Of a DNA stretch of 64,000 nt, positions 1,667 through 53,362 are shown one piece after another. Source of the stretch: an uncultured Lachnospiraceae bacterium. Its GTDB lineage: Bacteria; Bacillota; Clostridia; Lachnospirales; Lachnospiraceae. The stretch is from NCBI GenBank assembly GCA_946549155.1, contig CAMNQN010000001.1, positions 531 to 64,530 of the forward strand, in the 5' to 3' direction. Each line of letters opens with the position of its first letter. Within the stretch, counting starts at the first letter, position 1. The notes under the pieces were generated by a model that worked only from the letters and a program-made list of their open reading frames with translations, was not told the origin of the DNA and did not search any database. A program made the translations under genes and the position numbers.

Positions 1667-1701
1667 TGAGTCAGAAAACTATAACGGAATTTTAGGAGAA
1701 A

Positions 1702-3642
1702 ATGATGGGAAAAAATATCATAGATGTGGATCACGTATCCATCCGGTTTAATCTGGCCAGCCAGAAGGTAAATAACCTGAAGGAGTACGCCATAAAGCTG
1801 GCGAAGCATGAGCTGATGTTTCAGGAATTTCTGGCGCTGAAGGATGTGAACCTGCATGTGAAGCCGGGGGAGGCCTGGGGATTGATCGGAACCAACGGCT
1901 CCGGAAAATCCACTCTTTTAAAGACAATCACCGGTATTCTCAAACCCTACCAGGGAACCGTGAAGGTGAGAGGACAGATCGCGCCCATGATTGAGTTGGG
2001 GGCTGGTTTTGATATGGATCTGACTGCCCGGGAAAATATTTTCCTGAACGGCGCTGTGCTGGGTCATTCCAATGAATTCATGGAGGAGCATTTTGAGGAT
2101 ATCGTAGAATTTGCCGGATTGGGGAAATTCCTGGATTCTCCTATTAAGAACTTTTCTTCCGGTATGAAAGCGCGATTGGGATTTGCTGTGGCTACTATGG
2201 TGGATCCGGAGATTCTGATCTGTGATGAGGTACTCTCCGTAGGAGATTATCAGTTTAAAAAGAAATGCAACGAGCGCATGGAGGAGATGCTGTCAGGTGG
2301 AACCACGCTGCTGTATGTGTCTCACAATATCGACTCTGTAAAAAAACTTTGTACTCATGCGCTGTGGCTGGATCACGGCGAGGTGATTATGTCAGGAGAA
2401 GCGAAAGAGGTTTGCGATGCTTACAGCACCAGGCAGGAGCAGATATTCCGCATTGAACGGAAGGAAAAGGAAGTTAAAAAGGCGCAGAAGCCAGGAAATA
2501 AGTACGATTATCTGGTGGTGGGAGCCGGGCTTTACGGGGCGGTGTTTGCCCATGAAGCCTATAAAGCGGGAAAGCGCTGCCTGGTGATCGATAAGAGGAA
2601 TCATATCGGAGGAAATATCTATACAGAGAATATAAGTAAGATCAATGTGCACAAATATGGCGCGCATATTTTTCACACCAGTAAGAAACCAATCTGGAAC
2701 TACGTAAATGAATTTGCGGGGTTCAACAATTATATCAATGCACCGGTGGCGGTCTACAAGGACGAGCTGTATAATCTTCCCTTTAATATGAATACCTTCA
2801 GCAAGCTCTGGGGTGTGCGGACTCCGGAGGAGGTTAAGAAAAAAATCGCGGAGCAGATTGCAGAACTGAACATTACGGAGCCGAAAAATCTGGAGGAGCA
2901 GGCGCTTTCCCTGGTGGGCAGAGACGTTTACGAGAAGCTGGTGAAGGGCTATACGGAAAAACAGTGGGGAAGAGACTGCAGGGAGCTGCCGGCCTTTATC
3001 ATCAAGCGGCTGCCGCTGCGGTTCACCTATGACAATAACTATTTTAATGACCGTTATCAGGGTATTCCGGAGGGCGGATACACAAAGATTATCAAACAGC
3101 TTCTGGAAGGCATCGATGTGAAGCTGGAAACTGATTATGAAACCTATGTAAAAGAACATCCGGATTCCTTTGAAAAGGTACTATATACCGGACCCATCGA
3201 TGAGTATTTTAAGTATTCCCTGGGCCATCTGGAGTATCGTACGGTTCGCTTCGAGACGGAAGAACTGGAGATGGAGAACTATCAGGGCAATGCGGTGGTG
3301 AATTATACGGACCGGGAGGTGCCCTACACCCGCATTATCGAGCATAAGCATTTCGAGTTTGGAAAGCAGCCCACCACCATTATTTCCAGAGAGTATTCGG
3401 AGGAGTGGAAGCCGGGGATGGAACCCTATTATCCGGTGAATGACGAGAAGAATAATGAACTGTTCGGGAAATACAGAGAACTGGCTGAAAAAGAAGATAA
3501 AGTGATTTTTGGCGGTCGCCTGGGGAATTATAAGTATTATAATATGGATCAGGTGATTGAGGAGGCTCTGCTGATGGCGGAGCGGGAGCTGAAGAGGAAA
3601 ATTTTGGAGAATTACGCGGGAAGTAAGCCGTTGGAGGAATAA
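1702..3642 (+). CDS. Fusion protein: glycopolymer-export ABC ATPase (TagH/Wzt-like) + UDP-galactopyranose mutase (Glf)
   Basis: First ~250 aa carry Walker A GTNGSGKST, signature SSGMKARL and Walker B ILICDE. A Lys/Glu-rich linker (RIERKEKEVKKAQKPGNK) follows. Then come the FAD fold GAGLYG and Glf-type blocks (NVHKYGAHIFHT, YYPVND, GRLGNYKYYNMD). One uninterrupted 646-codon frame; AGGAG lies just upstream of tandem ATG ATG. Confidence 0.85.
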   Translation: MMGKNIIDVDHVSIRFNLASQKVNNLKEYAIKLAKHELMFQEFLALKDVNLHVKPGEAWGLIGTNGSGKSTLLKTITGILKPYQGTVKVRGQIAPMIELGAGFDMDLTARENIFLNGAVLGHSNEFMEEHFEDIVEFAGLGKFLDSPIKNFSSGMKARLGFAVATMVDPEILICDEVLSVGDYQFKKKCNERMEEMLSGGTTLLYVSHNIDSVKKLCTHALWLDHGEVIMSGEAKEVCDAYSTRQEQIFRIERKEKEVKKAQKPGNKYDYLVVGAGLYGAVFAHEAYKAGKRCLVIDKRNHIGGNIYTENISKINVHKYGAHIFHTSKKPIWNYVNEFAGFNNYINAPVAVYKDELYNLPFNMNTFSKLWGVRTPEEVKKKIAEQIAELNITEPKNLEEQALSLVGRDVYEKLVKGYTEKQWGRDCRELPAFIIKRLPLRFTYDNNYFNDRYQGIPEGGYTKIIKQLLEGIDVKLETDYETYVKEHPDSFEKVLYTGPIDEYFKYSLGHLEYRTVRFETEELEMENYQGNAVVNYTDREVPYTRIIEHKHFEFGKQPTTIISREYSEEWKPGMEPYYPVNDEKNNELFGKYRELAEKEDKVIFGGRLGNYKYYNMDQVIEEALLMAERELKRKILENYAGSKPLEE

Positions 3643-13642: not shown

Positions 13643-14701
13643 ATGAAGAAAAAAATATTGTATTTAATGGGAATTGACTGGTACTGGATAAAACAGCGTC
13701 CGCAAATGATAGCGATAGAATTGGATAAAGAATATTCTGTGACGGTAGTATATCTATCGGAGATTTTCAATAAGGCCAGTTTAAGACAGGAAAGGGATGA
13801 GCTGAAACGATGCAAAAGTGTACCGGCGCTTCCATACCGTGATAAAAACAGAGTGGTATCTTATGTGGAAAAACTTCTGATGCGGTGGGCCATAGGGGAT
13901 ATACGCCAATATGACATTATCTGGGTGGGACATCCTAATTTATATAAATATATTTCTCCGAAATATGGCGGAAAAATCGTGTATGACTGCATGGATGATC
14001 ATGCGGCTCTCTGCGGGGATTATAAAATACGGAGTGAAATAGAAAAGAATGAAAAAAAACTGGTGAGAGGTTCCGACATTGTTTTTGCTACCAGTCAGGT
14101 TCTAAAAAGAAAAATGGAAGCTGCCGGGGGGCAGGGGAAAACCTTTTTAAACAGGAACGGATTTCAGTGTGACCATATTTATCCGCCGCAAACAGCGAAA
14201 AAAAAAGACAGATATAAAATCGGATATATTGGTACGATTGCGGAGTGGATGGACTTTGATTTGATTCAGGCCAGCTTAAAGGCTAATTCTCAGATAGAGT
14301 ATCGTTTTGTGGGTCCTGTTAGTGGTTTTGATATTCCGGAACATCCCAGGATTTTTTATGAAGGTATTGTGGAGCATAGTCAGCTATATGAAAAAACGAA
14401 GGATTATGATTGCCTGATTATGCCGTTTATTGTGAATGATATCGTGTTAGCCGTGGATCCGGTTAAGCTTTACGAATATATCAGCATGGGTAAATGTGTG
14501 ATATCTGTATGGTATGAAGAGGTTGACCGGTTTGAACCGTTTGTCTATTTTTATCGAAATCAGAAGGAATTTGTGGAACTATTATTAAAGTTATGCGATA
14601 ATGGATTTCGACCTAAGTACAATGCGGAACAGCAGAAAGAGTTTTTAGAAGTTAATTCATGGGAAATGCGATATAGAGAAATAAGGAAGAGGGTGGAATA
14701 G
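13643..14701 (+). CDS. GT-B fold glycosyltransferase, TuaH-like
   Basis: IDWYWIKQRPQ N-terminal block, IGYIGTIAEWMDFDL, VDPVKLYEY. Paralogous to 16017..17300 and to the middle domain of 19460..23098. Contains an A9 run at 14198-14206. Confidence 0.75.
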   Translation: MKKKILYLMGIDWYWIKQRPQMIAIELDKEYSVTVVYLSEIFNKASLRQERDELKRCKSVPALPYRDKNRVVSYVEKLLMRWAIGDIRQYDIIWVGHPNLYKYISPKYGGKIVYDCMDDHAALCGDYKIRSEIEKNEKKLVRGSDIVFATSQVLKRKMEAAGGQGKTFLNRNGFQCDHIYPPQTAKKKDRYKIGYIGTIAEWMDFDLIQASLKANSQIEYRFVGPVSGFDIPEHPRIFYEGIVEHSQLYEKTKDYDCLIMPFIVNDIVLAVDPVKLYEYISMGKCVISVWYEEVDRFEPFVYFYRNQKEFVELLLKLCDNGFRPKYNAEQQKEFLEVNSWEMRYREIRKRVE

Positions 14702-14874
14702 GAGCTAAAGAGTTTTTATTGCGAAGGTTTTGGTATAGTTTTGATGATATATTCAGAAGGTGTTGTTATTCGCTTATAGATCCATTAGATTGGATATTGG
14801 CGGATATAATTACATTATAGAAATTTTTGACATTACAAGGAAGGAGTGGCCAAGAAACTTGGCGAATGAGTTTT

Positions 14875-15987
14875 ATGAAAGTTATGAGTATATTTGGGAC
14901 GCGTCCCGAAGCGATTAAGATGTGTCCGTTAGTAAAGGAGCTGGAAAAAACAGAAGGAATTGAGAGCGTTGTGTGTTTGACTGGTCAGCATAGAGAAATG
15001 TTGCAGCAGGTTATAGATATTTTTGGTACGAAAGTAAAATATAATCTTGATATTATGAAGCCTCGTCAGACATTGACAACAATTACCAGCAGTATTTTGG
15101 AAAAGATTGAGCCTGTGCTCATAAAGGAGAAACCGGATATAGTTTTGGTTCATGGTGATACCACTACTTCTTTTGTAGTAGCATTGGCAGCATTTTACCA
15201 GCAAATACCGGTTGGACACGTGGAAGCAGGCCTGAGAACCTTCGATAAATATTCTCCTTTTCCAGAGGAAATGAACCGTAACTTAACGGGGAAAATTGCG
15301 GAGTTGCATTTTGCTCCGACGGAAAATAATAGGAAAAACCTGGAGAGAGAAGGCGTCACTAGGAATGTATTTGTAACAGGTAATACTGTAATTGATGCAT
15401 TCCAGACGACGGTTAAAACGAATTATGTATTTAAAGATGAGACACTTAGAAACTTGGATTTAAAAAACAAAAAATGTGTTCTAATGACAGCACATAGGAG
15501 AGAAAATCTGGGACAGCCTTTGGAAAATATTTGTAATGCTGTTAAACGGTTGGCAGAAAAGTATGAAGATATGATTTTTGTTTATCCGGTGCATTTAAAT
15601 CCAGCGGTGCGAGATACGGCAAATGAAATTCTTGGTGATACAGAGAATGTTTATCTTATTCCGCCTGTGGACGTGGAGGATATGCATAACATCATGGATC
15701 GTAGTTTTTTGGTAATGACGGATTCTGGCGGCTTACAGGAGGAGGCTCCTGCGTGCGGTGTACCGGTGCTTGTTTTGCGCACGGAAACGGAAAGGCCGGA
15801 GGCTGTGAGAGCGGGCACCGTAAAGGTAGTGGGAGTAGATGAGCAGGTTATTTTTGACGAGGCAGTCAATTTAATTGAAAACAGAGCAGAATATGAGAAA
15901 ATGGCTAAAGCCGTAAATCCATATGGAGATGGGCATGCTAGTGAGAGAATTGTAGATCATATTCTTTGTTGGAACAAAAATATTTAG
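14875..15987 (+). CDS. mnaA: UDP-N-acetylglucosamine 2-epimerase (non-hydrolysing)
   Basis: MKVMSIFGTRPEAIKM, VHGDTTT, GHVEAGLRT, PEEMNR, DSGGLQEEAP. ATG 14875 preferred over the longer 14827 track start. Confidence 0.9.
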   Translation: MKVMSIFGTRPEAIKMCPLVKELEKTEGIESVVCLTGQHREMLQQVIDIFGTKVKYNLDIMKPRQTLTTITSSILEKIEPVLIKEKPDIVLVHGDTTTSFVVALAAFYQQIPVGHVEAGLRTFDKYSPFPEEMNRNLTGKIAELHFAPTENNRKNLEREGVTRNVFVTGNTVIDAFQTTVKTNYVFKDETLRNLDLKNKKCVLMTAHRRENLGQPLENICNAVKRLAEKYEDMIFVYPVHLNPAVRDTANEILGDTENVYLIPPVDVEDMHNIMDRSFLVMTDSGGLQEEAPACGVPVLVLRTETERPEAVRAGTVKVVGVDEQVIFDEAVNLIENRAEYEKMAKAVNPYGDGHASERIVDHILCWNKNI

Positions 15988-16016
15988 GCATTATTTTGAC
16001 GGAGAGCGCAATTGGA

Positions 16017-17300
16017 ATGAAAAAGATAATCGGTATTTGCAAAAAGATATATCTGGGGCAGGGAATAAGGGGATTATTTACAATTTTTCTTAGAGCATTC
16101 CAAATTAGGCTGTTTAATTTGAGTATATATCCTTTATGTAAGTCTTTTTATAGAAGAAAACTTAAGGATGTAATTAGTACAAAATATGATAGGGTTGTAA
16201 TATGGAATAATGGCTTTGGGTGGAATGTTACTTTATTTCAAAGGCCGCAGCATATTGCCAAGGCATTATCGAAACAGGGTTCATTAGTTTTTTATGAGGT
16301 GACGCGTAGGACAGATAAGGAAGTGCATTCATTTAAAAAAATTAGTGAAAATCTTTTTCTAATTAATCGCGAAAATAGGAGCTTTCGTCATATTTTGTTT
16401 GATGAGTTGTCACAAATAGAAATACCGAAATATATGCAAATATATTCAACAGAGTTAGAATTGTCGGCGCATGAATTGGGAGAATTTATGGATGCTGGTT
16501 TTAATATACTTTATGAATATATTGATGACATTCATCCGGATATCTCAGGGACTAAAACAGTTCCTGAGAATATCCTTTCTAAGTATAATTTTGTGATGAG
16601 CCATTCTGAAATTCCAGTTGTTGTTACTGCTGATCGATTAAAAGAAGATGTTGAAAAACACCGAGGAAACAGGAATCTTGCGTATTCGACAAATGGGGTG
16701 GATTATGAGCATTTTTCAGAAGTTCCTAAAGTTGACAAAAAGGATTTAACTCCACAATTTGAAAAGGTTATAGATTCAGGAAAAGTGATTATTGGATATT
16801 ATGGAGCGTTGGCGTCTTGGTTTGATTATCAACTAGTAAAAGAGGTGGCGAAAAAGAGAAAAGATGTTGTGTTTGTTTTAATAGGTAAAATTTATGATGA
16901 ACAATATTCTAAGATGGGGTTAGAAGATTACGATAATATTGTCTATTGCGGAGAAGTTCCCTATGATAAATTGCCCTTATTTGCGTGTTATTTTGATATT
17001 TGTACGATACCATTTATAGTTAATGAGCTGACGAATGCAACTTCTCCACTAAAACTATTTGAATACATGGCATTAAAGAAGCCGATTATTACAACTGGAA
17101 TGTATGAATGCAGAAAATATAGATCTGTTATGATAGCAAATGACAGTGATGATTTTTGCAGACAAATCGATAATGCTGTAAAATATATTAATATGGGGGA
17201 TAAGGAGTATTATGCTCTTTTAGAGAAAGAAGCTTTGGAAAATACGTGGGATTCGAAGGCCAAAAGTATTGTGGATATGTTAAGAAAATTTGAAGGATGA
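16017..17300 (+). CDS. GT-B fold glycosyltransferase, TuaH-like
   Basis: WNVTLFQRPQHIAKALSKQG, IGYYGALASWFDYQL, TSPLKLFEYMA. ATG 16017 chosen because the track start 15966 overlaps the mnaA stop region. Confidence 0.75.
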   Translation: MKKIIGICKKIYLGQGIRGLFTIFLRAFQIRLFNLSIYPLCKSFYRRKLKDVISTKYDRVVIWNNGFGWNVTLFQRPQHIAKALSKQGSLVFYEVTRRTDKEVHSFKKISENLFLINRENRSFRHILFDELSQIEIPKYMQIYSTELELSAHELGEFMDAGFNILYEYIDDIHPDISGTKTVPENILSKYNFVMSHSEIPVVVTADRLKEDVEKHRGNRNLAYSTNGVDYEHFSEVPKVDKKDLTPQFEKVIDSGKVIIGYYGALASWFDYQLVKEVAKKRKDVVFVLIGKIYDEQYSKMGLEDYDNIVYCGEVPYDKLPLFACYFDICTIPFIVNELTNATSPLKLFEYMALKKPIITTGMYECRKYRSVMIANDSDDFCRQIDNAVKYINMGDKEYYALLEKEALENTWDSKAKSIVDMLRKFEG

Positions 17301-17310
17301 TGAATTTATT

Positions 17311-18120
17311 ATGAAGACTATTGCGTATGGAGCAGAACTTATTAGAGGTATCGCGAGAAACAGGGGGCTATTATTAGAGTTTGCGGGCAAAGATTTTCAA
17401 CGTAGATTTGCAGGGTCGTATTTTGGGGTAATATGGGGAGTTTTGCAGCCGTTATTAACGGTTTTTGTCTATTGGAGTGTATTTCAATTTGCATTTAAAA
17501 GTGGACCAGTAAATGGAGTACCATTTGTGTTATGGTTTATGTGTGGCATTGTTCCTTGGCTTTTTTTTGCAGAAGCATTTCCGATGGCTAGTAATTGTTA
17601 TTTGGAATATAGTTATTTAGTAAAAAAGGTAGTATTTAATTTAGATATTTTGCCCCTAGTTAAAATTTTTTCATGTATGGTTGTACATTTGCTGTTTTCG
17701 TTATTGATACTGGTTTTTTGTATTGTGTTTGGATATTTCCCTGGAATTTATTTGGTGCAGTTATTATATTATTGGGTGGCATTGGTTGCGTTAATATATG
17801 CTATTTCAATAATTACCTCTTCTATTATTGTGTTTTTTAGAGACTTAAATCAGCTGATTAGTATTATTTTGTTGGTAGGAATGTGGGCGACTCCCATTGC
17901 GTGGAATTTGTCTGTATTGCCAGAAAAGTATCAATCGATACTTAAATGGAACCCCATATATTATATTGTAGAAGGATATAGGGATACCTTTGTAAATAAT
18001 GTATGGTTTTGGGAAAAAATAGATTTAACGATACGTTATTGGGTAATATTAGTTGTTTTGTATTTTATTGGACTTTCTTTATATAGAAGATTAAAACCGC
18101 GTTTTGCAGACGTATTATGA
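17311..18120 (+). CDS. ABC-2 type glycopolymer export permease (Wzm/TagG-like), second system
   Basis: KDFQRRFAGSYFGVIWGVLQPLL signature and six hydrophobic segments. Alternative TTG start at 17290. Confidence 0.85.
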   Translation: MKTIAYGAELIRGIARNRGLLLEFAGKDFQRRFAGSYFGVIWGVLQPLLTVFVYWSVFQFAFKSGPVNGVPFVLWFMCGIVPWLFFAEAFPMASNCYLEYSYLVKKVVFNLDILPLVKIFSCMVVHLLFSLLILVFCIVFGYFPGIYLVQLLYYWVALVALIYAISIITSSIIVFFRDLNQLISIILLVGMWATPIAWNLSVLPEKYQSILKWNPIYYIVEGYRDTFVNNVWFWEKIDLTIRYWVILVVLYFIGLSLYRRLKPRFADVL

Positions 18121-18140
18121 TTAAGAAGTAAGGAAATGAT

Positions 18141-19463
18141 ATGGAAAAAAAGATAAGTTTACGGAGCATTAGTAAAATATATAAAATGTATAATTCATCA
18201 ACGGATCAGCTTAAAGAAGCGTTAAGCTTAACCGGAAAAAGTTATCATACAGATTTTTGCGCTTTAAAAGATATTTCTTTTGATTTGTCTCAGGGAACTA
18301 TTTTGGGGATAATGGGAAGAAATGGGGCCGGTAAATCTACATTATTGAAAATAATCACAGGTGTACTAAAACCAAGCTCTGGAAGTTTAGAAGTCAAGGG
18401 GAAAATATCTTCATTACTCGAATTAGGCGCTGGCTTTAATATGGAATATAATGGTCTAGATAATATTTATTTTTATGGTATGCTTATGAAACTGACACAC
18501 AAGCAGGTAGAGGAGCGAGTAAAAGACATCATTGAATTTGCAGAGATAGGAGATTATATATATCAGCCAGTAAAAACATATTCGAGCGGAATGTTTGCCA
18601 GATTAGCTTTTTCCTGTGCTATTAATGTAGATCCGGATATATTGATTGTGGATGAAATATTGAGTGTTGGAGATATTCGTTTTCAAGCTAAGTGCTTTAA
18701 TAAATTCAAAGAATTTAAAGAGAAGGGTGTCACAATAATATATGTAGGACATGATGTTGGATTAATGAAAAGTTTCTGTGATGATGCAATCTGGCTTCAT
18801 AATGGTCAAATTGTGGATCGTGGCAATCCAGCAGAAGTTGCTGCAAAATATGTGGAGTTTATGTACTTAGATGAAGGAACAGAATTTACAACTTACAATA
18901 GGAACTCTATGGACAATTCGAAAAAATCGGAGAAACAAATTGTTGGGAATGCTGAGGGAGAAAATAAAGAGCAAAAAAAGGAGGTAAGCAATAGTTTATA
19001 TAAAAAAGCAATTACACACTGGGGAATAGCGCCTGGAATAATAAAAAAGGTGTGCTTACGAAACAGTAAAAAAGAAGAAATAGATTATTTTGATCCGTCA
19101 GAAACCGTTGAAATCCAGTTTGATTTAGAGTTTAGTGAGTTAGTTGATTTTGATAATTTATCTATTGCTTTTTCTATAAAAAATAAAGAAGGAACAGATA
19201 TTATTGTAAAGACAACTTATGATGAGGGTATTTCTTTGGTGAACAATCAAAGTAAAAAGTATCAAATTATATTTAAATTAAAAACTTTATTAGCAGTAGG
19301 GGAATATTATTTAGTTGCTGCAGTTGAAAACAGATCAGAAGTCAATCCCATTTATTATGAGTATATTGAGGGAGTTAAATATTTTAAGGTATTTACAAAT
19401 AAAAAAATTTTTGGAAAAGTTGATTTGCCGACTCAAATTACGATTAATGAGGTAGAAAAATGA
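18141..19463 (+). CDS. ABC exporter ATPase with C-terminal Wzt_C-like beta-sandwich domain (Wzt-like)
   Basis: GRNGAGKST, SSGMFARL, ILIVDE in the first ~250 aa. A Lys-rich linker follows. Then a ~150-aa beta-rich domain (VCLRNSKKEEIDYFDPSETVEIQFDLEF...GEYYLVAAVEN) of the type that binds chain-end caps in O-antigen Wzt proteins. Confidence 0.8.
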   Translation: MEKKISLRSISKIYKMYNSSTDQLKEALSLTGKSYHTDFCALKDISFDLSQGTILGIMGRNGAGKSTLLKIITGVLKPSSGSLEVKGKISSLLELGAGFNMEYNGLDNIYFYGMLMKLTHKQVEERVKDIIEFAEIGDYIYQPVKTYSSGMFARLAFSCAINVDPDILIVDEILSVGDIRFQAKCFNKFKEFKEKGVTIIYVGHDVGLMKSFCDDAIWLHNGQIVDRGNPAEVAAKYVEFMYLDEGTEFTTYNRNSMDNSKKSEKQIVGNAEGENKEQKKEVSNSLYKKAITHWGIAPGIIKKVCLRNSKKEEIDYFDPSETVEIQFDLEFSELVDFDNLSIAFSIKNKEGTDIIVKTTYDEGISLVNNQSKKYQIIFKLKTLLAVGEYYLVAAVENRSEVNPIYYEYIEGVKYFKVFTNKKIFGKVDLPTQITINEVEK

Positions 19464-22400
19464 ACAGAGTGAATTCAAAAGAATATTGGGAAAAAAGATT
19501 TACGGAACAGGATTGGGAAAAAAATAGAGGAGGCGAACAGACAAAATATTTTTATGAATTATTGGTGAAAATGCTTCCGCAATGGATTGTTACAGAAATA
19601 CGAAAAGAGAAGTATACCGTAATTGACTTTGGATGCGCAGAGGGGCAGGGAGTTCCTATTTTACAAGAAAAATTAGGAACAAAGATAATAGGGATGGATT
19701 TTGCGGAGGGGGCAATTCAACAGGCCAGACTTAAATTCCCGCAGCATACGTTCGAGGTAGGCGATATAACAAACTATGGTGGGAGAGTAGATGTTGCTAT
19801 TATGTCAAATATATTGGAACATTTTACGACTCCGTATAATATTTTGGAGCATATTTCAAAATGTACAAATAAGTATATGGTGGTAATGGTTCCTTTTGAA
19901 GAAGAAAATTTAATGACGGAGCATTGCTATACGTTTAGGTTTAATAATATTCCTATTGCGGTAAACGGATTTCAATTAGTGCAGCTAGAAGAATATGATT
20001 GTTTGAAAGATGCTAACAATTTGTTTTTAGGAAAACAAGTCTTATTAATATATTCGCAAAAACAGGATATTAATGAGACTATATCATATGAACAAATGAA
20101 TCGGGTAATTCCGGCTTTGAGGCAACAAATAAGGGATGTTCAAGATAAATTTCAGCAAAAATTTGAGAAAAGTCAATTTGAAGTTGAAAAAAATCACATG
20201 ATAGCAGAAAAAAAGCAATTAGAGTTAGAATTGGCTAACAAGGAGAGAGCTGAACTGGAAGCACTAAATGAGCAAAAAAATGCGCAGTTAGTGAATGAAA
20301 GAAGTGCTTACTGTGAATTAAATGGAAGATATGTAGAGCTTAGTGAGAGATTTAATTCATTAAATGATACGTATGGCTATACAAAAGAAAAGTATCGTGA
20401 AATTCTGGATTCTTATACATGGAAGATAGGAAGCGCACAACTTAATGCGCTAAAAAAAGTGAAACTTTTGGCGCCTGTAAAGAAATATATGGATGCTAGG
20501 TTACAGAAGAATAATATAGAAGAGAATTTGGCAACTGAATTAGATAGTAATTTAGAGCAGATTTTAGCAAAACAAGAAGTGTCAGATGACATTACAAATT
20601 ATATAAAGATACAGGGAAAATTATTCCGAGAGAGCATTGATAGTCCATTAGGTGAAATTTCTCTGAAATTACAAGAAATTATTAAAACAAGACGTTATAA
20701 AGGAATTGTTGTTTATCCTCATGCGGTGAAGTGGGAACCGATTCAAAGGCCACAACATTTTTTGCGGGAACTTTCTAAGAAGGGTTTTCTCTGCTTTTTC
20801 TGCGAAAATGAAGAATGCTCTGAAGACGTAGCAGAACCTTATGAAAATGTATTTATTGTTAAAAATGGAGAATTAAATTTATTGCCCGTTTTGCAGGATA
20901 AGGCGGTAATTGTTTTGATTACTTTTTATCTGCAAACTTTATTTTCAAAGTTTCTGCCTCAAAAAGTAATATGGTTTGACATATTAGACCGGTTGGATTT
21001 TTTTGATGGGAACGGAGATATAAGTAAAGATATTTATCGTGAATTAATTAGTAAAGCGAATATTGTGAGTTATTCAGCGAATAATTTAAAAGAGTATGTT
21101 TCTGAAAGAAAGGACGCAATAAAGCTTCCGAATGCAGTAAATCTTGATGATTTCAAGAAAAGAGATGAGGAGATTCCAAAAGAAATTCTAACTTTAAAAG
21201 AAAAAGGGAAAAAAATTATTGGTTATTATGGAGCAATCGAAGAATGGTTTGACTGGAGTGCGGTCAAATATTTGGCGGATCAAACAGATTATGAAATTGT
21301 GTTGATTGGAGCTGCAAATGAAAAAATAAAAGACAAGTTGCAGCATAATCAGGTTCATTTTCTTGGCAGAAAACCGTATCAGTCTCTTTATAAGTATGCA
21401 AATTGTTTTGATGTAGCGTTGCTTCCCTTTGTCGTAAACGATTTAACAAATAGTGTTTCGCCTGTTAAATTTTTTGAATATGCTGCTATGGGGCTTCCGG
21501 TGGTATCTTCAAATATTCACGAAATGAAACAATATGCTGTTGAAAATGTGAAATTGTATTCAACAAAAGAAGAGTTTGTCGATTTAGTGAAGTCTTTAGC
21601 AATCAGATATTCTGGGAAAAAAGTAAGCTTCAATGATTTTATCAAGCAAAATACATGGGAACAGAGGATTGATGTATTTCTGGAAAGTATGAAATCGCAA
21701 ATTGGAAATCTAAAAGTATTGGCAAATACAGATTCGAGTGGTTCAGTGGCGGTAAATACAGTAACCTTTTTTAAATACGATGGGACAACATATTATTCAG
21801 GTGGTGCTGAGCGATATCTTTTGGACTTAGATGAAATTTGTGAAGAATTGAATATCAGATTCCGTGTTTATCAATATGGAGAGTATGATTGGGTACGCTT
21901 TTACAATAATGTTGAAGTTATCGGTTTGGGAGCGAAGCAGAATGATGTGAATGTATACAGTGTCTTATTGAAACAAGAGATGGAGGAAGCTTTTAAAAGA
22001 AATACTCAAAATAAGTCACTAGTGGATATTTATTCAGCGTTTAACTTATTGCAACGAAAAGATTCAGTGACGTCTATCGGAATAAGTCATGGGATATTTT
22101 GGGATAATGAGGCAAATTGTTTCACGAATGGAACAGATTTTTGGCGTAATGACGAAGAAATAATTCGGGCTGCAAAATATTGTGATTATATGGTTTCGGT
22201 GGATACGAATACATGCAATTGGTTTCAGACAATTGATTATCAGCTTAGCAAAAAAATGAAATATATACCGAATTATGTGGATAATCAGGAATTCGCTCCG
22301 GGTGAAAGGAACGACAAAGAAAAGATTATTATAACATATCCGAGACGTTTATATGGCGCGAGAGGATTATATATTGTTTTGGATGTGATTGACGATGTTT

Positions 22401-23098
22401 TGAATGCATTTGAAAACGTCGAGTTTCATTTTGTGGGCAAGGGGTTTGAACAAGATACAAAATATGTGGAACAAAAGATATGTAAATGGGGGGACAGAGT
22501 AAAATGGTATTCACAATCTCCCGATAAAATGCATGAAGTATATAAATATACGGATATTTCTTTGGTTCCGACTATGTATAGTGAGGGCACAAGCCTGTCT
22601 TGCCTGGAGGCACTTTCCAGTGGTAATGTTGTTGTGTGTACACGAGTAGGTGGTTTGACAGATTTAATTCTTAATGATTATAACGGAATTTTAATTGAAC
22701 CAGATAAAGAATCTTTAAAGGAAGCGTTGTTTGAATTATTGAATTCTCCGGAAAAAATGAAAACATTGAAAAAGAATGCAGTATTGACGGCACAAGCTTT
22801 TTCCAAAAGTAAATGGAAAGAGCGTTGGAAGAAAATTTTGAAAAGGGCCATTGGAGAGCAGAATACAGCCCCGTATGAATATCATAAGCGCTGCATGATT
22901 AAACTGACTAAACTGTCGGTTCAGGATGATAAAGTGATAAATTGTATTTGCAAATATTTGGATGACGGATATTATGTATATGTTGCCAGTCCAGAAAAAA
23001 CTAACAAATTTCACAGTTTCCAAAGATTGCAGTTTATATTGCTTGACGAGGATTTATATTTTGAGCCGGATGTCATTTTGACGGAGACAGAAATTTAA
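19460..23098 (+). CDS. Multidomain protein: class I SAM methyltransferase - coiled coil - TuaH-like GT - GT4-type GT
   Basis: aa 1-200: VIDFGCAEGQG, GMDF, SNILEHF. aa ~205-345: heptad-like Gln/Glu/Lys-rich stretch. Next, WEPIQRPQHFLRELSKKG, IGYYGAIEEWFDW, VSPVKFFEY. C-terminal part has EGTSLSCLEALSSGNVVVCTRVGGLTDLI (GT4 E-x7-E region). ATGA overlap with the Wzt-like gene. Confidence 0.8.
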   Translation: MNRVNSKEYWEKRFTEQDWEKNRGGEQTKYFYELLVKMLPQWIVTEIRKEKYTVIDFGCAEGQGVPILQEKLGTKIIGMDFAEGAIQQARLKFPQHTFEVGDITNYGGRVDVAIMSNILEHFTTPYNILEHISKCTNKYMVVMVPFEEENLMTEHCYTFRFNNIPIAVNGFQLVQLEEYDCLKDANNLFLGKQVLLIYSQKQDINETISYEQMNRVIPALRQQIRDVQDKFQQKFEKSQFEVEKNHMIAEKKQLELELANKERAELEALNEQKNAQLVNERSAYCELNGRYVELSERFNSLNDTYGYTKEKYREILDSYTWKIGSAQLNALKKVKLLAPVKKYMDARLQKNNIEENLATELDSNLEQILAKQEVSDDITNYIKIQGKLFRESIDSPLGEISLKLQEIIKTRRYKGIVVYPHAVKWEPIQRPQHFLRELSKKGFLCFFCENEECSEDVAEPYENVFIVKNGELNLLPVLQDKAVIVLITFYLQTLFSKFLPQKVIWFDILDRLDFFDGNGDISKDIYRELISKANIVSYSANNLKEYVSERKDAIKLPNAVNLDDFKKRDEEIPKEILTLKEKGKKIIGYYGAIEEWFDWSAVKYLADQTDYEIVLIGAANEKIKDKLQHNQVHFLGRKPYQSLYKYANCFDVALLPFVVNDLTNSVSPVKFFEYAAMGLPVVSSNIHEMKQYAVENVKLYSTKEEFVDLVKSLAIRYSGKKVSFNDFIKQNTWEQRIDVFLESMKSQIGNLKVLANTDSSGSVAVNTVTFFKYDGTTYYSGGAERYLLDLDEICEELNIRFRVYQYGEYDWVRFYNNVEVIGLGAKQNDVNVYSVLLKQEMEEAFKRNTQNKSLVDIYSAFNLLQRKDSVTSIGISHGIFWDNEANCFTNGTDFWRNDEEIIRAAKYCDYMVSVDTNTCNWFQTIDYQLSKKMKYIPNYVDNQEFAPGERNDKEKIIITYPRRLYGARGLYIVLDVIDDVLNAFENVEFHFVGKGFEQDTKYVEQKICKWGDRVKWYSQSPDKMHEVYKYTDISLVPTMYSEGTSLSCLEALSSGNVVVCTRVGGLTDLILNDYNGILIEPDKESLKEALFELLNSPEKMKTLKKNAVLTAQAFSKSKWKERWKKILKRAIGEQNTAPYEYHKRCMIKLTKLSVQDDKVINCICKYLDDGYYVYVASPEKTNKFHSFQRLQFILLDEDLYFEPDVILTETEI

Positions 23099-23297: not shown

Positions 23298-25742
23298 ATG
23301 TCAGGCAGGAAGAAACAGATAAGAAAAAGTAGTAAAGTTTTATTTAATTGTATAATTATTAGTTTATTGTTATTGATTAATATAGGAACTTTAAAATGGC
23401 AATTAGGATACAATTATTATAGGGAATCCGGAAGTTTATATTCTCCGCGGCAGGGGTGGACGTATACAGATATATTCTCGGGAGACAGTGATGTAGTAAC
23501 ACAATATTTTCGACCCCCAAAAAGCTATTTGGAATGTATTATGTTCAGATTGGAATTTTCATTAAATGAGCAGGTGTCCCCAGAGAATATTTTTTTAATA
23601 AGTATGTATGATGAAAAAGAGCAATTAGTTTGTGAGGAAGAGCTTTATGTACATGAGTATTCTAATTGGAATGCATACACATTTAATATAGAAAAGGAAG
23701 TAAATAAAAATAAGCTTTATAAATTAGTTTTTAAAGAAAGGAAAGAAAATGAAAAACCGTCTCTGTTTTTTAGATTTCTTTTATCAGAGGAAGGCATAGA
23801 AGAAGAAGAGGGATATGAAGTAAATGGAGAAAAAAGTGCCGGAAATATTGAATTAGCATATAGATATTCATATAAAGATTGGAAGCCTTTGTTATGGATA
23901 ATAATAGGAGATTTGGTGGTTTGTATTGGTTTGTTAAGTTGTAATGTATATGCGAAAAATGGAAAGCGCAACAAAATATTAGAGGGAGCATTATGGGCGT
24001 TAACACCTATTATTATGTTTGGGCTAATGCAGGAAATTATTGGAGGAATTAGTAATATTCAGATAAAATATATTCCATTTAATTTATTCATTTTGTATGG
24101 CATATTGATTATCTTTACTCTGTTTTTTAAGAAAACAAAAATTGCCCTAATGTTATTTAGCTGCATAATTTTAATATTTGCCCTGATTGAATATTTTGTT
24201 ATGGAATTTCGGGGTAGTCCATTTATGTTAATGGATGTATTAAGTGTGAAGACTGCTATGAATGTGTCACAAGCATATTCTTTTGATTTAAGTATAAGGC
24301 TAGGAATTGAACTACAGTTCTTTTTGATGTTATTTTATGCACAATTTTTTGGAATTAAGCAGTCTAATACAAAGAAGATAGTTAAAAATAGAATTTTGAG
24401 TATGGGACTTTTAGTTCTGGCAATATTGTTGATATATAATAATCCTTTTGGTATTTTTGAGAATAAAATATCATTTTATGCTGTTGATCAGGAGTATCTT
24501 CATAAAGGATATTTTTATATATTGTTCTCAGAAGTACAATCTATGCTTCAAGATAAGCCAGAGAATTATTCCGTTGAAAGTATTAGAGACATTGTTAATA
24601 ATGTTGAAAATGGTATTAGCGTAGAATCGACGGATGATAGTCCGATGAATATTATCGTTATTATGAATGAGAGTTTTGCTGACTTTGATGTTCTTGGGGC
24701 AGTAAAAACAAAAGAAAAAATTGCGCCATATATAAAAGGAATGGACAAAAATGTTATAAAAGGATATTTGCAGGTCCCGGTTTTTGGAGGGAGCACAGCT
24801 AATACGGAATATGAAACTCTGACGGGAAATTCAACAGAATTTTTACCGGTGTCAAGTATACCATATATATTGTATACCAAAAGTCCGGAATATGGTTTGA
24901 CATTGACTTTAAAGCATCAGGGGTATAGAACTATCGCGATGCATCCTTTTGACGCATCAGGGTATAACAGGGAAAAGGCTTATGAAAATATGGGTTTTGA
25001 AGAATTTTACAGTATAGAAAATTGGGAGAGTGATTATAAAACTATTCGGAGTTGGATGAGTGATCAGTCTGTATATGAAAAAATTTTTCAAATTTATCAA
25101 GAAAAGAATCAAAATGAAAAACTCTTTGTGTTCTGTGTTACAATACAAAATCATGGCGGGTATTCCGAAGAATGTGCTAACGGATATGAAGACAAAGTGT
25201 CCTTGGACTATGAACAAAATTTTCCAGAAGCAGAACAGTATTTGGCATTAATTAATGAATCAGATAAAGCGTTTAAAAGTTTGATCAATTATTTTGAAAA
25301 TATAGAGGAAAAAACAATGATCGTTTTTTTTGGTGATCATATGCCAATGGTCGAGTCAGAATTTTATGAAACCATTCTGGGAAAACAAACGGAAGAATTG
25401 AGTTGGGAAGAGCAGCAGCTAAAATATCAAATACCATATATTATATGGACAAACTATCCCCAGGAAACTTTTCAAGAAAATATAAGTTCGAACTATTTGG
25501 GAAGTATTATCTTGCAAAGGGCGGGATTAAAGCTAACAACTTATAATAAATTTTTGCTAAAGTTAAAACAAAAACTGCCTATTATTGGAAAGGAGGCTGT
25601 AATGGATGCGACAGGAGCGTGGTATGAATGGAATGAATTGCCGGAACAATATGAGAATATGATAAATGATTACAGAATTTTACAATACAATAATATGTTT
25701 GATCAAAAAAAATTGATCAAGAATATTTTTAGTTTACAATAA
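23298..25742 (+). CDS. LTA-synthase-family (sulfatase-fold) polytopic membrane phosphotransferase with extra N-terminal domain
   Basis: IIVIMNESFADF, GGSTANTEYETLTG and FFGDHMP are typical of LtaS/alkaline-phosphatase-superfamily enzymes. Hydrophobic core spans about aa 195-385. An unusual ~170-aa soluble segment follows the first TM. Confidence 0.8.
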   Translation: MSGRKKQIRKSSKVLFNCIIISLLLLINIGTLKWQLGYNYYRESGSLYSPRQGWTYTDIFSGDSDVVTQYFRPPKSYLECIMFRLEFSLNEQVSPENIFLISMYDEKEQLVCEEELYVHEYSNWNAYTFNIEKEVNKNKLYKLVFKERKENEKPSLFFRFLLSEEGIEEEEGYEVNGEKSAGNIELAYRYSYKDWKPLLWIIIGDLVVCIGLLSCNVYAKNGKRNKILEGALWALTPIIMFGLMQEIIGGISNIQIKYIPFNLFILYGILIIFTLFFKKTKIALMLFSCIILIFALIEYFVMEFRGSPFMLMDVLSVKTAMNVSQAYSFDLSIRLGIELQFFLMLFYAQFFGIKQSNTKKIVKNRILSMGLLVLAILLIYNNPFGIFENKISFYAVDQEYLHKGYFYILFSEVQSMLQDKPENYSVESIRDIVNNVENGISVESTDDSPMNIIVIMNESFADFDVLGAVKTKEKIAPYIKGMDKNVIKGYLQVPVFGGSTANTEYETLTGNSTEFLPVSSIPYILYTKSPEYGLTLTLKHQGYRTIAMHPFDASGYNREKAYENMGFEEFYSIENWESDYKTIRSWMSDQSVYEKIFQIYQEKNQNEKLFVFCVTIQNHGGYSEECANGYEDKVSLDYEQNFPEAEQYLALINESDKAFKSLINYFENIEEKTMIVFFGDHMPMVESEFYETILGKQTEELSWEEQQLKYQIPYIIWTNYPQETFQENISSNYLGSIILQRAGLKLTTYNKFLLKLKQKLPIIGKEAVMDATGAWYEWNELPEQYENMINDYRILQYNNMFDQKKLIKNIFSLQ

Positions 25743-28467: not shown

Positions 28468-30066
28468 ATGAAGAGAATAATTATTCGGAGCTTAAGCTTT
28501 AGTATAATTTTATTGGTTTTATTTAATATAGTTTCAGAAATATTAAAAAAACCTAAGAATTCACAGTGGGATACGAGCGGTCTCGAATATACAAACAAAT
28601 ATCCGGGGCTTTTTGATGTTGTTTTTTCTGGAACAAGTATAACGATCATGAATGTAAGTAGTGAAGAATTATATACAGAATATGGTATTGCAGCAGTTAC
28701 GCTCGGAGAACCAGAACAGCCTATGTTTTTAACATATTATACGTTGTTAGAAGCACTGAATTATCAATCACCTAAAGTTGTATTTTTAGATATTAATTCT
28801 TTATTTTATTCGGAAAGTATGCTTCGAAATAAAATCAACGATTATGAACATTATTATTTACATTTTTCGTTGGATAGCATTAGAAACCCCATAATTAAAT
28901 ATGAAGCTTTTCAGGCTGCTAAAGAGTTGAAACCAGATTTAGACATATTTAATTACTTCTCTTCAATATATTATAACCATTCCAATTGGGAAGAACTGGG
29001 CAAAACTAATTTTATTCGTAAGAGCGGAAAACAAGTGATGAATGGATATTTTATGAGTTTTACAATTGCAGAAGGCTTAGCTAAGTTACGTGACAGTATT
29101 GATATTGATTATGCTGAGAATGTAAATGAAGAGGAATTATTGGATTTCAATAAAACTTACCTCATGAAGATAGTGGAATTGTGTAAAGAAAAGAATGTAC
29201 AATTAGTTTTTTTAAGGGGAGGAGGAATTGATACAGCCTTAACCAGTGAAAAATATAATACCATAAATAAAATTGCAATAGACAACGATATTCCATTTAT
29301 TGATATGCTGCAGCATGACAAAGAAATGGGATTTGACTGGCGGTTTGATGCATCAGATGGAAATCATTTTAATATAATGGGAGCAAAAAAGTGGACAGAT
29401 TATTTGGGAGATTATTTAATAAATAATTATCGATTTGAGGATAGACGTGATGATTCGAGATATAAATTTTTAGAAGAAGAGGTGGATCGCTATCAAAATG
29501 CATTAGCGGTAATGCAAACAAAAATTGATTTACTTTCTGCTATTAACTTTGAACAGTATCTGAATGCGCTTAAAGCGGTTGATACAAGTAAAAATACTAT
29601 TTTCATTTCAGTAAGTGATGATGCTTCAAAAAATCTTTCAAAGAAAGACTGTGACAAGTTATCGGAGCTAGGACTCACATATAATTTGATGGATAAATTT
29701 AGATACAGTTATTTAGCTGTGTTGGATAACCATACATCAAGAGATCTACTGGAAGACTGTGGAGTAACCCTGGATGGTGAATTGGATAATGGAAGTAGGT
29801 ATCAACTATCAAGCGGAGGGTATTCTTCAGGAGTGCTGGCTAGCATTCGAGTTGATGGTTTGGAGTTGATACAGGGAGGGCGTGGAATTAATATTGTGGT
29901 ATACAATAAAGAATATGGAGAAGTTTTAAGCAGTGTTTATTTTGACACTTTTTTATATGAGAATCCGCCAACTATGAGAAGAATCAATGTGGACATAGTT
30001 CAGGAGCAATACGAGACAAGCGCTAATGTTTGGTCATCAGTGGACGATGTATTGGTTCAGGATTAA
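28468..30066 (+). CDS. Membrane-anchored DltD/SGNH-like acyltransferase/esterase with C-terminal ILEI/PANDER-like domain
   Basis: N-terminal TM. FSGTSITIMN (Ser block) and DASDGNHFN (D..H block). C-terminal FISVSDDASKNLSKKDCDKLSELGL and GGRGINIVVYNKEYGEVLSSVYFDT resemble FAM3/ILEI blocks. Sits 25 nt upstream of an MBOAT gene. Confidence 0.65.
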   Translation: MKRIIIRSLSFSIILLVLFNIVSEILKKPKNSQWDTSGLEYTNKYPGLFDVVFSGTSITIMNVSSEELYTEYGIAAVTLGEPEQPMFLTYYTLLEALNYQSPKVVFLDINSLFYSESMLRNKINDYEHYYLHFSLDSIRNPIIKYEAFQAAKELKPDLDIFNYFSSIYYNHSNWEELGKTNFIRKSGKQVMNGYFMSFTIAEGLAKLRDSIDIDYAENVNEEELLDFNKTYLMKIVELCKEKNVQLVFLRGGGIDTALTSEKYNTINKIAIDNDIPFIDMLQHDKEMGFDWRFDASDGNHFNIMGAKKWTDYLGDYLINNYRFEDRRDDSRYKFLEEEVDRYQNALAVMQTKIDLLSAINFEQYLNALKAVDTSKNTIFISVSDDASKNLSKKDCDKLSELGLTYNLMDKFRYSYLAVLDNHTSRDLLEDCGVTLDGELDNGSRYQLSSGGYSSGVLASIRVDGLELIQGGRGINIVVYNKEYGEVLSSVYFDTFLYENPPTMRRINVDIVQEQYETSANVWSSVDDVLVQD

Positions 30067-48813: not shown

Positions 48814-48972
48814 ATGAAAAAGATGGAAAAATGGATAGCCAGAATGGATTCTTTTATGAAGGAAATGGGAGAGGAGTACAATAAGCTTGTGGAAACTTTT
48901 TCTTCCCAGTATATGATTTCAGGCGCCTGTATACAAAACAAGATATGTATTCTTAGAAAGAAAATCCTATGA
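48814..48972 (+). CDS. Small hypothetical protein (52 aa)
   Basis: AAGGGAG RBS 9 nt upstream. Its stop overlaps the start of the next gene (ATGA at 48969-48972), which suggests translational coupling. No family recognised. Confidence 0.35.
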   Translation: MKKMEKWIARMDSFMKEMGEEYNKLVETFSSQYMISGACIQNKICILRKKIL

Positions 48973-50141: not shown

Positions 50142-50261
50142 TGACAGGCATCCGGGAAGCTCTTAAGTGTGGGACGGCGGGCTGTGGAGAGTATTCGCAG
50201 GATGTGCGGTCGGGAAAACAACGTACCTGACAAAGGGTGGCAATAGGGAGGAGAGGAACCT

Positions 50262-51485: not shown

Positions 51486-51600
51486 GAAATTCGCAAAATG
51501 GCCTTGCGCTGGGTACGAAAAGAAATTATACTGGGAACCAAGCGGTATGGTCTTAGAAGAGTACTGCGATGGGGCAGACGGATAGAATGGAGGAAAAAAG

Positions 51601-53345: not shown

Positions 53346-53362
53346 CAGGAGCGGAAGAAAAG

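Follow-up and report, generated by a model that had tools for sequence, protein, structure and literature searches.

A horizontally acquired wzm-wzt island in a gut Clostridia genome probably encodes a capped-chain module for wall-polysaccharide assembly and export

What polymer would be built and exported, and how would its length be set, by a low-GC island in which an ABC exporter is followed by one 1212-aa protein joining a methyltransferase to two glycosyltransferases (GTs)? The locus lies in the window, i.e. the whole 64,000-nucleotide stretch of Lachnospiraceae DNA analysed here, and all features below are on its + strand. The permease gene wzm (17311..18120, 269 aa; PF01061 ABC2_membrane, 57.5 bits) starts with the ATG at 17311, and a GAAGGA ribosome-binding site is found 13 nt upstream; the alternative TTG start at 17290 given by the ORF lister is less likely and overlaps the upstream gene. 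As proposed in the original prediction, the permease is followed by a Wzt-like ATPase carrying an extra C-terminal domain: wzt (18141..19463, 440 aa) encodes an ABC_tran domain (aa 42–173) and a Wzt_C domain, the putative cap reader (aa 299–428, 19035..19424; PF14524, 60 bits against a cut-off of 30.4 bits). The best solved relative of the nucleotide-binding domain is the full-length Aquifex aeolicus Wzt (8dku/7k2t, E 8e-80), and the C-domain alone matched the A. aeolicus carbohydrate-binding domain (6o14, 8dky, E 2e-5). The wzt stop overlaps the start of the 1212-aa protein, P0001 (19460..23098), in an ATGA at 19460–19463, and the two are translationally coupled, in line with the earlier claim.

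P0001 (AF2 mean pLDDT 84.8) reads as a terminator-spacer-polymerase protein, and the domain order anticipated for it, namely SAM methyltransferase, heptad helix, TuaH-like GT-B and GT4, was recovered by Pfam, NCBIfam and AF2. The N-terminal class I SAM methyltransferase domain (aa 1–199, 19460..20056), a putative chain terminator, exceeds the cut-offs of five Pfam families (Methyltransf_31, 23, 25, 11 and 12) and is modelled with pLDDT >90. Its SAM-binding residues, whose loss would have spoken against such an assignment, are intact, with D56, G58, G62, D80, D102, E120 and H121 invariant in 20 homologues (alignment A1). The nearest folds are ChlM and TehB-type methyltransferases (E 2e-11), and WbdD was absent from the sequence and fold matches of this domain. 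No kinase-sized insert is present, and the methyltransferase leads straight into the helix.

A heptad-rich segment of ~140 aa, and a coiled coil at aa ~200–350, had been predicted next. The heptads were borne out but the length was not, since the putative coiled-coil spacer or ruler is a helix of 107 residues (aa 210–316, 20087..20407), and aa ~317–410 form a separate neck. In the AF2 model of aa 1–420 the spacer is one continuous helix (pLDDT 76–92), ~16 nm long if straight; the full-length model breaks it into two helices. Over aa 205–320, hydrophobic autocorrelation at lags 7, 14 and 21 reached 0.57 versus −0.02 ± 0.17 in shuffles (p = 0.002), and the same lags were prominent over 31 homologues. 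A cruder Fourier periodicity test gave no significance for this copy; clean a/d positions are confined to aa 277–319, the heptads being weaker at aa 214–276. The spacer is also the most length-variable region of the family, the distance from methyltransferase end to GT start ranging from 183 to 362 aa in the 31 homologues, and tandem 7-residue repeats occur in the spacer of two relatives. The conserved helical neck (aa 317–410, 20408..20689; motifs conserved in alignment A1), of which head-less GT-GT relatives retain ~113 aa, includes a basic stretch (aa 319–345) with a net charge of +4 to +5 and a modest hydrophobic moment.

Both GT modules carry invariant residues. Module 1 (aa 416–745, 20705..21694; PF13524 Glyco_trans_1_2) is TuaH-like, with an NCBIfam TuaH match of E 6e-17 that lies far under that model's cut-off, and has K670 and E673 invariant in alignment A1 and pLDDT >90. 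The GT4-type module 2 (aa 760–1135, 21737..22864; PF00534 Glycos_transf_1, 111 bits; PF13692, 108 bits) has an invariant E1042-x7-E1050, and MshA, PglA and PimA are its fold matches. The protein ends in a small alpha/beta domain of ~70 aa (aa 1140–1212, 22877..23095), conserved in alignment A1 and defined by AF2 secondary structure, which the original prediction had omitted.

The original prediction had suggested testing whether the Wzt C-domain co-occurs with proteins of this kind, and the outcome is positive. A Wzt with C-domain adjoins a protein with the same methyltransferase head in 13 of the 16 loci, together with wzm (the window, L001/3, L002, L004, L005, L039, L165–L168, L175, L176 and L177); the other three, L164 (with a 50% identical protein), L169 (45%) and L170, have a short Wzt. 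Versions with a GT4 head on the same spacer-GT-GT chassis stand beside wzm and a Wzt_C-bearing Wzt in all seven loci; relatives in Lysinibacillus, Ureibacillus and Solibacillus carry such a head. By contrast, the Wzt of head-less relatives is short, or the transporter is lacking altogether: no wzm/wzt was found within 10 kb of ~35 head-less GT-GT loci, and split GT forms have a Wzt of 244–278 aa. The association of terminator head and Wzt C-domain is thus nearly constant, not absolute. Compared at similar nucleotide-binding-domain identity (44–56%), the C-domains of same-head loci were 38%, 38% and 25% identical to that of the window, and those accompanying other terminators 19–30%, which is suggestive, at the sequence level, of head and C-domain varying together.

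These comparisons also bear on whether the methyltransferase might instead decorate internal residues or those of every repeat, the helix serving just for dimerisation or as a scaffold and export being gated otherwise; methylated polysaccharides on which GT and methyltransferase act in alternation would be the model. The three same-head loci devoid of a Wzt C-domain would fit such an enzyme, as would the weak similarity of module 2 to a mycobacterial methylmannose-polysaccharide mannosyltransferase (7qsg). We nevertheless consider it rather unlikely, given that a methyltransferase acting alongside the polymerase has no obvious need for so variable a spacer, that the head co-occurs with Wzt_C in most loci, and that in the analogues characterised chain termination falls to the methyltransferase; the same chassis also accepts a GT4 head, which agrees with interchangeable terminators.

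The original prediction took wzm, wzt and P0001 as a three-gene core, but these genes are not self-sufficient: the window lacks an initiating transferase, and two upstream genes are conserved partners. These are mnaA, for a UDP-GlcNAc 2-epimerase (14827..15987; PF02350, 405 bits), with an Epimerase_2 gene adjoining wzm/wzt and the head protein in L163, L164, L165, L167, L168, L176 and L177, and the gene of a 444-aa TuaH-like GT-B enzyme (15966..17300; Glyco_trans_1_4, Glycos_transf_1; NCBIfam TuaH E 4e-22, under that model's cut-off), with a GT of 402–421 aa at the equivalent position in L001, L002, L005, L039, L165 and L168. The latter is probably an adaptor or primer GT. Downstream, an 814-aa LtaS-like membrane protein of sulfatase fold (23298..25742; PF00884, 131 bits over aa 451–743) may modify the polymer outside the cytoplasm; sulfatase genes also lie downstream of the head protein in L163, and immediately downstream in L166. 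The conserved unit exceeds three genes, comprising mnaA and the TuaH-like GT and often the LtaS-like enzyme too.

The wzm-wzt-P0001 island has ~33% GC against 50.9% for the genome and, in a comparison among relatives, no counterpart in 40 related genomes; it is horizontally acquired in this gut Clostridia genome. Its foreign GC and its absence from 18 congeners could mark a recently gained passenger that is barely expressed or decaying and does nothing for the host, but this seems highly improbable, as every frame is intact and translationally coupled, conservation extends to each catalytic motif, and a 99%-identical copy of P0001, P0002, exists on a different contig in public data.

A new Gram-positive version of the pathway had been claimed as well, and this does not hold, because wzm-wzt-wsaE of Geobacillus stearothermophilus NRS 2004/3a, with a methyltransferase and two GTs, was described in 2008 by Steiner et al. 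(as reviewed in PMC2943079). There WsaE, acting on an S-layer glycan, combines an N-terminal 2-O-methyltransferase with two GT domains; elongation is proposed to stop at a methyl cap, which Wzt is predicted to bind. Like the window, this Gram-positive system has an O-methyltransferase followed by two GT domains in one polypeptide, overlapping stop/start codons (of wzm, wzt and wsaE there, the ATGA here) and a cluster GC below that of its genome. Homology was assessed via a syntenic proxy of WsaE, P0162, whose cluster (TPR protein, Wzy_C ligase, wzm, wzt with C-domain, head-GT2-GT2, rmlACBD) matches the published slg layout (PMC2943079). The P0162 head is homologous to the methyltransferase plus helix of P0001 (31% over aa 4–300, E 3e-45; 37% for the methyltransferase domain alone), and the Wzt C-domains are 38% identical, whereas the polymerase body is GT2-GT2 in P0162 and TuaH-like GT-B plus GT4 in P0001. 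No description of a coiled coil in WsaE was found in open papers.

This kinship, and a Wzy_C gene near the Clostridioides difficile relative P0028, raise the alternative that, as with WsaE, the product is an O-glycan on an S-layer or other protein rather than a peptidoglycan-linked wall polysaccharide. Unlike the WsaE system, however, the island has no WsaB-type Wzy_C ligase, TPR protein or rml genes, and its product is therefore probably a wall polymer; apart from mnaA, it has no dedicated sugar-nucleotide genes. A wall polysaccharide, the product originally proposed, is likewise favoured by the genome content, because LCP ligases are present, with five matches spread over four or more ORFs, and no Wzy_C ligase was detected across the 92%-complete genome. 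Moreover, the rest of the window is a wall-glycopolymer supercluster (TagF-like and TarI/J-like genes, Glf and Gtr modules), and mnaA with an LtaS-like partner is typical of wall polymers, leaving the protein-linked glycan improbable.

We thus regard the island as probably a module, gained by horizontal transfer, that assembles and exports a wall polysaccharide by the ABC-transporter-dependent, capped-chain route. The architecture expected of that pathway is present: a terminator-type domain at the far end of the helix, polymerase GTs on the same polypeptide and a Wzt C-domain encoded directly upstream. At the cytoplasmic face, an initiating transferase whose gene lies elsewhere would make a polyprenol-linked primer. 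The TuaH-like GT(s) encoded upstream would extend it, MnaA supplying UDP-ManNAc, before both GT-B modules of P0001 elongate the chain. The helix, probably a coiled-coil oligomer, would hold the methyltransferase ~16 nm off, and a chain long enough to reach this enzyme would be O-methylated at its non-reducing end and stop growing; the Wzt C-domain would recognise this capped end and pass finished chains alone through Wzm/Wzt. Outside the membrane, the LtaS-like enzyme and downstream GT-C/GT2 genes would probably decorate the polymer, and LCP ligases probably attach it to peptidoglycan. We infer in this scheme the methylation of terminal rather than internal residues, the cap reading by Wzt and the length control by the helix, as well as the sugar identity and wall anchor of the polymer.

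The scheme follows the published paradigm in which a coiled-coil ruler carries the terminator at its distal end and Wzt contributes a carbohydrate-binding module (PMC11231755, PMC11127046). ORF6 of Klebsiella pneumoniae O7, which works with Wzm/Wzt, has a methyltransferase terminator, a coiled coil and two C-terminal GTs (PMC11231755), and so shares the methyltransferase-coil-GT-GT order in one polypeptide; unlike P0001, it serves a Gram-negative O antigen, has GT2 enzymes, inserts a kinase and a CBM between methyltransferase and coil, and makes a methyl-phosphate cap. WbbB (K. pneumoniae O12/Raoultella terrigena) likewise unites a terminator, two polymerase GTs and a coiled-coil ruler in a single protein, but its terminator is a beta-Kdo glycosyltransferase; the likeness to P0001 is drawn from architecture, and the GT4-head relatives are its closer analogues. 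WbdD/WbdA (Escherichia coli O9a; K. pneumoniae O3/O5) follow the same logic of methyl-containing cap, coiled-coil ruler and cap-reading Wzt domain, although WbdD is a separate kinase-methyltransferase whose C-terminal coil recruits a separate polymerase, and P0001 has no kinase domain. P0001 therefore represents a design already known from Geobacillus (WsaE) and Klebsiella (O7 ORF6, O12 WbbB), in which, as its homologies indicate, a methyltransferase-plus-helix head of the WsaE type is set on a different polymerase body.

The 1212-aa protein (P0001) is encoded at 19460-23098 (+) behind the genes of a Wzm/Wzt exporter. The arrangement on which the original prediction was built, namely a Wzm-like permease, a Wzt with an extra C-terminal domain and an ATGA-coupled multidomain protein, was present in the sequence in full. 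The wzm gene (17311-18120, +) starts with an ATG preceded by GAAGGA and matched ABC2_membrane (PF01061), while wzt (18141-19463, +) encodes 440 aa with ABC_tran (PF00005) at aa 42-173 and Wzt_C (PF14524) at aa 299-428, the latter scoring 60 bits against a Pfam cut-off of 30.4. The nucleotide-binding domain of this Wzt was matched by full-length Aquifex aeolicus Wzt (E 8e-80), and its C-domain alone matched the A. aeolicus Wzt carbohydrate-binding domain (6o14, 8dky; E 2e-5), so that PF14524 and the A. aeolicus match both identify a C-terminal carbohydrate-binding domain. The wzt stop overlaps the start of the 1212-aa ORF at 19460-19463, and the PF01061 and PF00005 genes of the ABC-2 exporter lie immediately 5′ of it. 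None of the genes of the locus reached the cut-off of a curated NCBIfam family. Upstream of wzm, two more TuaH-like GTs were found at 13643-14701 (+) and 15966-17300 (+), with sub-cut-off NCBIfam E-values of 2e-19 and 4e-22, respectively, the former having no Pfam match.

Pfam and AF2 modelling (mean pLDDT 84.8) recovered the foreseen domain order of methyltransferase, heptad helix, TuaH-like GT and GT4 in the 1212-aa protein. Residues 1-199 form a class I SAM methyltransferase, with five Pfam methyltransferase families above their cut-offs. SAM-binding residues, whose lack had been named as a refutation, were found in place: motif I reads D56-F-G58-C-A-E-G62, and D56, G58, G62, D80, D102, E120 and H121 are invariant across 20 full-length homologues. 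A putative terminator with an intact cofactor site is thereby located at the spacer end distal to the GTs. Fold search with the model of aa 1-420 retrieved generic class I methyltransferases, ChlM and TehB-type enzymes being nearest (E 2e-11), with WbdD absent; the search with the full-length model was dominated by GT-B matches and uninformative on the head, i.e. the methyltransferase plus helix.

Following the methyltransferase, aa 210-316 were modelled by AF2 (aa 1-420) as a single unbroken 107-residue helix with pLDDT 76-92, spanning about 16 nm if straight; the full-length model breaks this helix at aa 243-251 and gives it lower confidence, both models being monomers. When the helix is arranged in heptads, its stretch aa 277-319 shows clean a/d positions (a = L, Y, Y, F, Y, Y, Y; d = E, L, L, L, T, I, K), and the pattern is weaker in aa 214-276. 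Fourier analysis of the entire 213-aa spacer for a period of 3.5 residues gave no significant signal in the window copy (z = 0.2); ten homologues had z values of 3 to 5.7. In its place, the hydrophobic autocorrelation at lags 7, 14 and 21 was adopted for aa 205-320, giving 0.57 versus -0.02 +/- 0.17 in shuffles (p = 0.002); the same three lags stand out across 31 homologues, most other lags being negative. AF2 and autocorrelation thus both place an extended heptad helix between terminator and polymerase, in agreement with the coiled coil that had been anticipated there. A PDB sequence search with the spacer returned a sole, non-significant match, the coiled-coil protein She3 (E 0.37).

The distance from the end of the methyltransferase to the start of the first GT is 213 aa in the window protein and ranges from 183 to 362 aa across relatives, which is consistent with, though short of proof of, the predicted chain-length ruler. 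In the alignment of homologues, tandem 7-residue repeats were seen in the spacers of two relatives, P0015 (KNHQELV/RNHQELE/KNHQELE) and P0008 (KNNEFEQ/KNREYEQ/RNRELVN), as would be expected if the coil lengthens by whole heptads.

Beyond the spacer lies a conserved helical neck (aa 317-410), about 113 residues of which are kept by head-less GT-GT relatives, which assigns the neck to the polymerase chassis rather than the variable spacer. A basic stretch at aa 319-345 was considered as a WbdD-like membrane-binding amphipathic helix but is not claimed as one, its net charge being +4 to +5 but its hydrophobic moment only 0.25-0.33. The polymerase part comprises two GT-B modules within the same polypeptide, a TuaH-like one at aa 416-745 with invariant K670 and E673, and a GT4-type one at aa 760-1135 with an invariant E1042-x7-E1050. 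It is followed by a small alpha/beta domain of about 70 aa (aa 1140-1212; window 22877-23095, +), conserved across the family with the pattern RC.I.L ... YVYVA ... SY.RLQF ... LYF.P.

A single-protein scan of genome contigs found no relative, and relatives were reached by an alignment-based scan. The nearest full-length ones, 45-57% identical, are all from Clostridia, i.e. Anaerosporobacter mobilis and MAGs of Lachnospiraceae, Oscillospiraceae and Eubacterium. By comparing 80 related loci and 12 gene-neighbourhood look-ups (one without a record), we found that the transporter context sorts with the architecture of the big protein. Among 16 loci with the same methyltransferase head on any polymerase body, in 13 the gene is directly preceded by wzm and by a wzt encoding Wzt_C. 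A GT4 head on the same spacer-GT-GT chassis, found in Lysinibacillus, Ureibacillus, Solibacillus and Paenibacillus, is accompanied by a Wzt with Wzt_C at all seven loci, and its spacers are heptad-like as well. The head-less GT-GT form (about 35 loci, Paenibacillus and Cohnella) has no wzm/wzt within 10 kb, and the split GT forms (about 14 loci) have a short Wzt of 244-278 aa. All ten Wzt proteins tested with Pfam exceeded the Wzt_C cut-off. The three same-head loci lacking the Wzt C-domain are L164, L169 and L170 (C. difficile), so the proposed coupling between head and Wzt C-domain proved strong but not absolute; L007 and L027, which carry a different methyltransferase subtype, also have a short Wzt. 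The SLCT-11 S-layer glycan locus of C. difficile was considered as the home of P0028, the relative from this species; the paper on it names no methyltransferase, and no link is claimed.

In L164 (7655-9061) and L169 (364-1827), the Wzt is short (247 and 248 aa) without Wzt_C, and the Wzm, of 468 and 487 aa, respectively, bears an N-terminal extension of about 220 aa, the order being TM helix, a beta-rich domain of about 160 aa, TM helix and normal Wzm. Aligned over the full length, these two permeases show 41% identity. The L164 extension had no Pfam match, and a relocated Wzt_C was ruled out by its lack of similarity to Wzt_C; the beta-rich domain on the L164 and L169 permeases, apparently extracytoplasmic, may be one that has so far gone undescribed.

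An exhaustive HMMER search with aa 1-420 retrieved 249 cluster representatives at E <= 1e-30, in which the head match is almost always N-terminal and often extends into the helix, in proteins of about 200 to about 1650 aa. By Pfam, the head sits on varied bodies, namely GT2-GT2 (P0162), GT2-GT4 (P0261), GT1-GT2 (P0124) and a single GT4 (P0125, P0122), and in P0143 it is located at the C-terminus. The cluster of P0162, from Calidifontibacillus erzurumensis, encodes a TPR protein, a Wzy_C ligase, wzm, wzt with a C-domain, the head-GT2-GT2 protein, a 385-aa protein, a GT2 and rmlACBD. Alignment of the window protein with P0162 is confined to aa 4-300 (31% identity, E 3e-45), and the two proteins share the head and differ in the polymerase body. 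Identity to the Wzt C-domain of the window is 38% (L175), 38% (L176) and 25% (L177) for those paired with this head, 21-30% for those paired with GT4 heads, and 19% for the second Wzt C-domain of the own genome, which is paired with an unrelated stand-alone methyltransferase. Made at comparable nucleotide-binding-domain identity (44-56%) on a small sample, this comparison suggests that head and Wzt C-domain may co-vary.

The logic is established from E. coli O9a (WbdD/WbdA) and from K. pneumoniae O12 (WbbB), O4 and O7: a coiled-coil ruler has a terminator at its distal end and the polymerase GTs at the opposite one, and a Wzt carbohydrate-binding module reads the cap (PMC11231755, PMC11127046). 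K. pneumoniae O7 ORF6 has the same order of methyltransferase, coil, GT and GT as the window protein but an extra kinase and CBM. WbdD of E. coli O9a combines a kinase and a methyltransferase with a C-terminal coil and works with a separate polymerase, whereas in the window protein the methyltransferase passes directly into the helix and shares one polypeptide with the GTs. A WbdD relative was rejected, because no kinase family matched the window protein and WbdD was absent from both its sequence and fold matches. The Gram-positive precedent is WsaE of Geobacillus stearothermophilus, where the wzm/wzt/wsaE codons overlap and Wzt is predicted to bind the cap (PMC2943079). The published slg layout of wsaA (TPR), wsaB (ligase), wzm, wzt, wsaE, wsaF and rml (PMC2943079) is also the order of the P0162 cluster, and by this synteny P0162 was taken as a WsaE-type proxy; the head homology described above is with P0162. 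The polymerase modules differ, being GT2-GT2 with rmlACBD alongside in P0162 and TuaH-like GT-B plus GT4 in the window protein, and a WsaB-type (Wzy_C) oligosaccharyl:protein transferase gave no PF04932 match in the 92%-complete own genome. Judged from sequence, the polymerase part of the window protein would not be orthologous to that of WsaE. The protein fits best in the terminator/coiled-coil/polymerase class (WbbB, K. pneumoniae O7 ORF6, WsaE), as a new pairing in which a known head is joined to a GT-B/GT4 body. No paper linking WsaE with a coiled coil was found in the open literature, and hence a ruler in the Gram-positive members is plausible but unproven.

The locus falls within a low-GC block of about 16 kb (about 14-30 kb of the window), with about 33% GC versus 43-51% in the flanks, in a genome of 3.15 Mb, 318 contigs and 50.9% GC. 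The host is a member of the gut Clostridia, since one of its thiamine-locus genes, of native GC, shares 85-92% identity with genes of gut Eubacteriales MAGs. The 1212-aa protein was absent from 40 relatives of the host, 18 of them congeners, one having only a weak partial GT match; this absence and the GC contrast both speak for horizontal acquisition. In the same 92%-complete genome, PF04932 had no match but LCP had five, spread over at least four ORFs, which favours a peptidoglycan-linked polymer over an S-layer glycan as the product. The dTDP-rhamnose synthesis genes are located elsewhere in the genome, its only rmlC match being on contig C90, and no initiating transferase was found within the window.

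Conserved alongside in relatives are mnaA, a TuaH-like GT of about 400 aa and often an LtaS-like sulfatase-fold protein, with an ILEI-domain protein or a PMT_2 GT-C as occasional partners. In the window, the LtaS-like membrane protein (814 aa, 23298-25742, +) follows the 1212-aa gene, and it recurs downstream of the head-GT-GT gene at L163:16509-18737 and L166:6832-8805, with an ILEI-domain gene behind it in L166, an arrangement shared by the window (28468-30066). In size and fold the LtaS-like protein presumably resembles the streptococcal glycerol-phosphate transferase GacH. Given these conserved partners, the functional unit is larger than the three-gene core of wzm, wzt and the 1212-aa gene that had been put forward. 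Altogether, the observed architecture held, while its reading as a methyl-capped, length-controlled polysaccharide system was partly supported.

The remainder of the window is a wall-glycopolymer supercluster, containing a second Wzm with an ABC ATPase-Glf fusion, many GT2 genes, DUF2142 and GtrII genes, four TagF-like genes and TarI/J-like genes. This second Wzm/Wzt system lies at 878-3642 (+), and its 646-aa ATPase ORF (1702-3642) fuses an ABC nucleotide-binding domain (aa 46-177) to the UDP-galactopyranose mutase Glf (aa 412-612). The region 48969-59397 contains four TagF-like CDP-glycerol/ribitol phosphotransferase genes as well as genes for an IspD/TarI-like cytidylyltransferase and a TarJ-like dehydrogenase (51601-53345); together they make up a teichoic acid set of the poly(ribitol-phosphate) type adjoining the polysaccharide loci. 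Outside the window, a second, native-GC, capped-chain-type locus was found at C2:19278-32067 (-) of the own genome, with a WbaP-like initiating transferase, GT2, wzm and wzt (477 aa, Wzt_C 149 bits), followed by a stand-alone 320-aa SAM methyltransferase, a 441-aa protein without a Pfam match and further GTs.

A bolder picture, which we regard as improbable, would treat the head, together with the Wzt C-domain that matches it, as a portable ‘cap-and-check’ cassette, repeatedly grafted in Bacillota onto unrelated GT2-GT2, GT2-GT4, GT1-GT2 and TuaH-like-GT4 bodies, with natural heptad indels tuning wall-polysaccharide length between gut strains and, in a few relatives, the Wzt C-domain lost and the beta-rich Wzm domain of about 160 aa in its place.

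To our knowledge, chain-length control is poorly understood in Gram-positive wall polysaccharides compared with O antigens. The window locus leaves current concepts unchanged. It is a compact, apparently complete example in a gut commensal lineage; what it adds is the comparative finding that the head and the Wzt C-domain tend to occur together, and a range of natural spacer and head variants. The family amounts to a natural experiment, in which a common chassis is combined with a varying spacer, a varying head (methyltransferase, GT4 or none) and a Wzt C-domain that is present or absent, making the coiled-coil ruler and cap-gated export testable outside Enterobacteriaceae; the same variation could serve the engineering of glycans of defined length.
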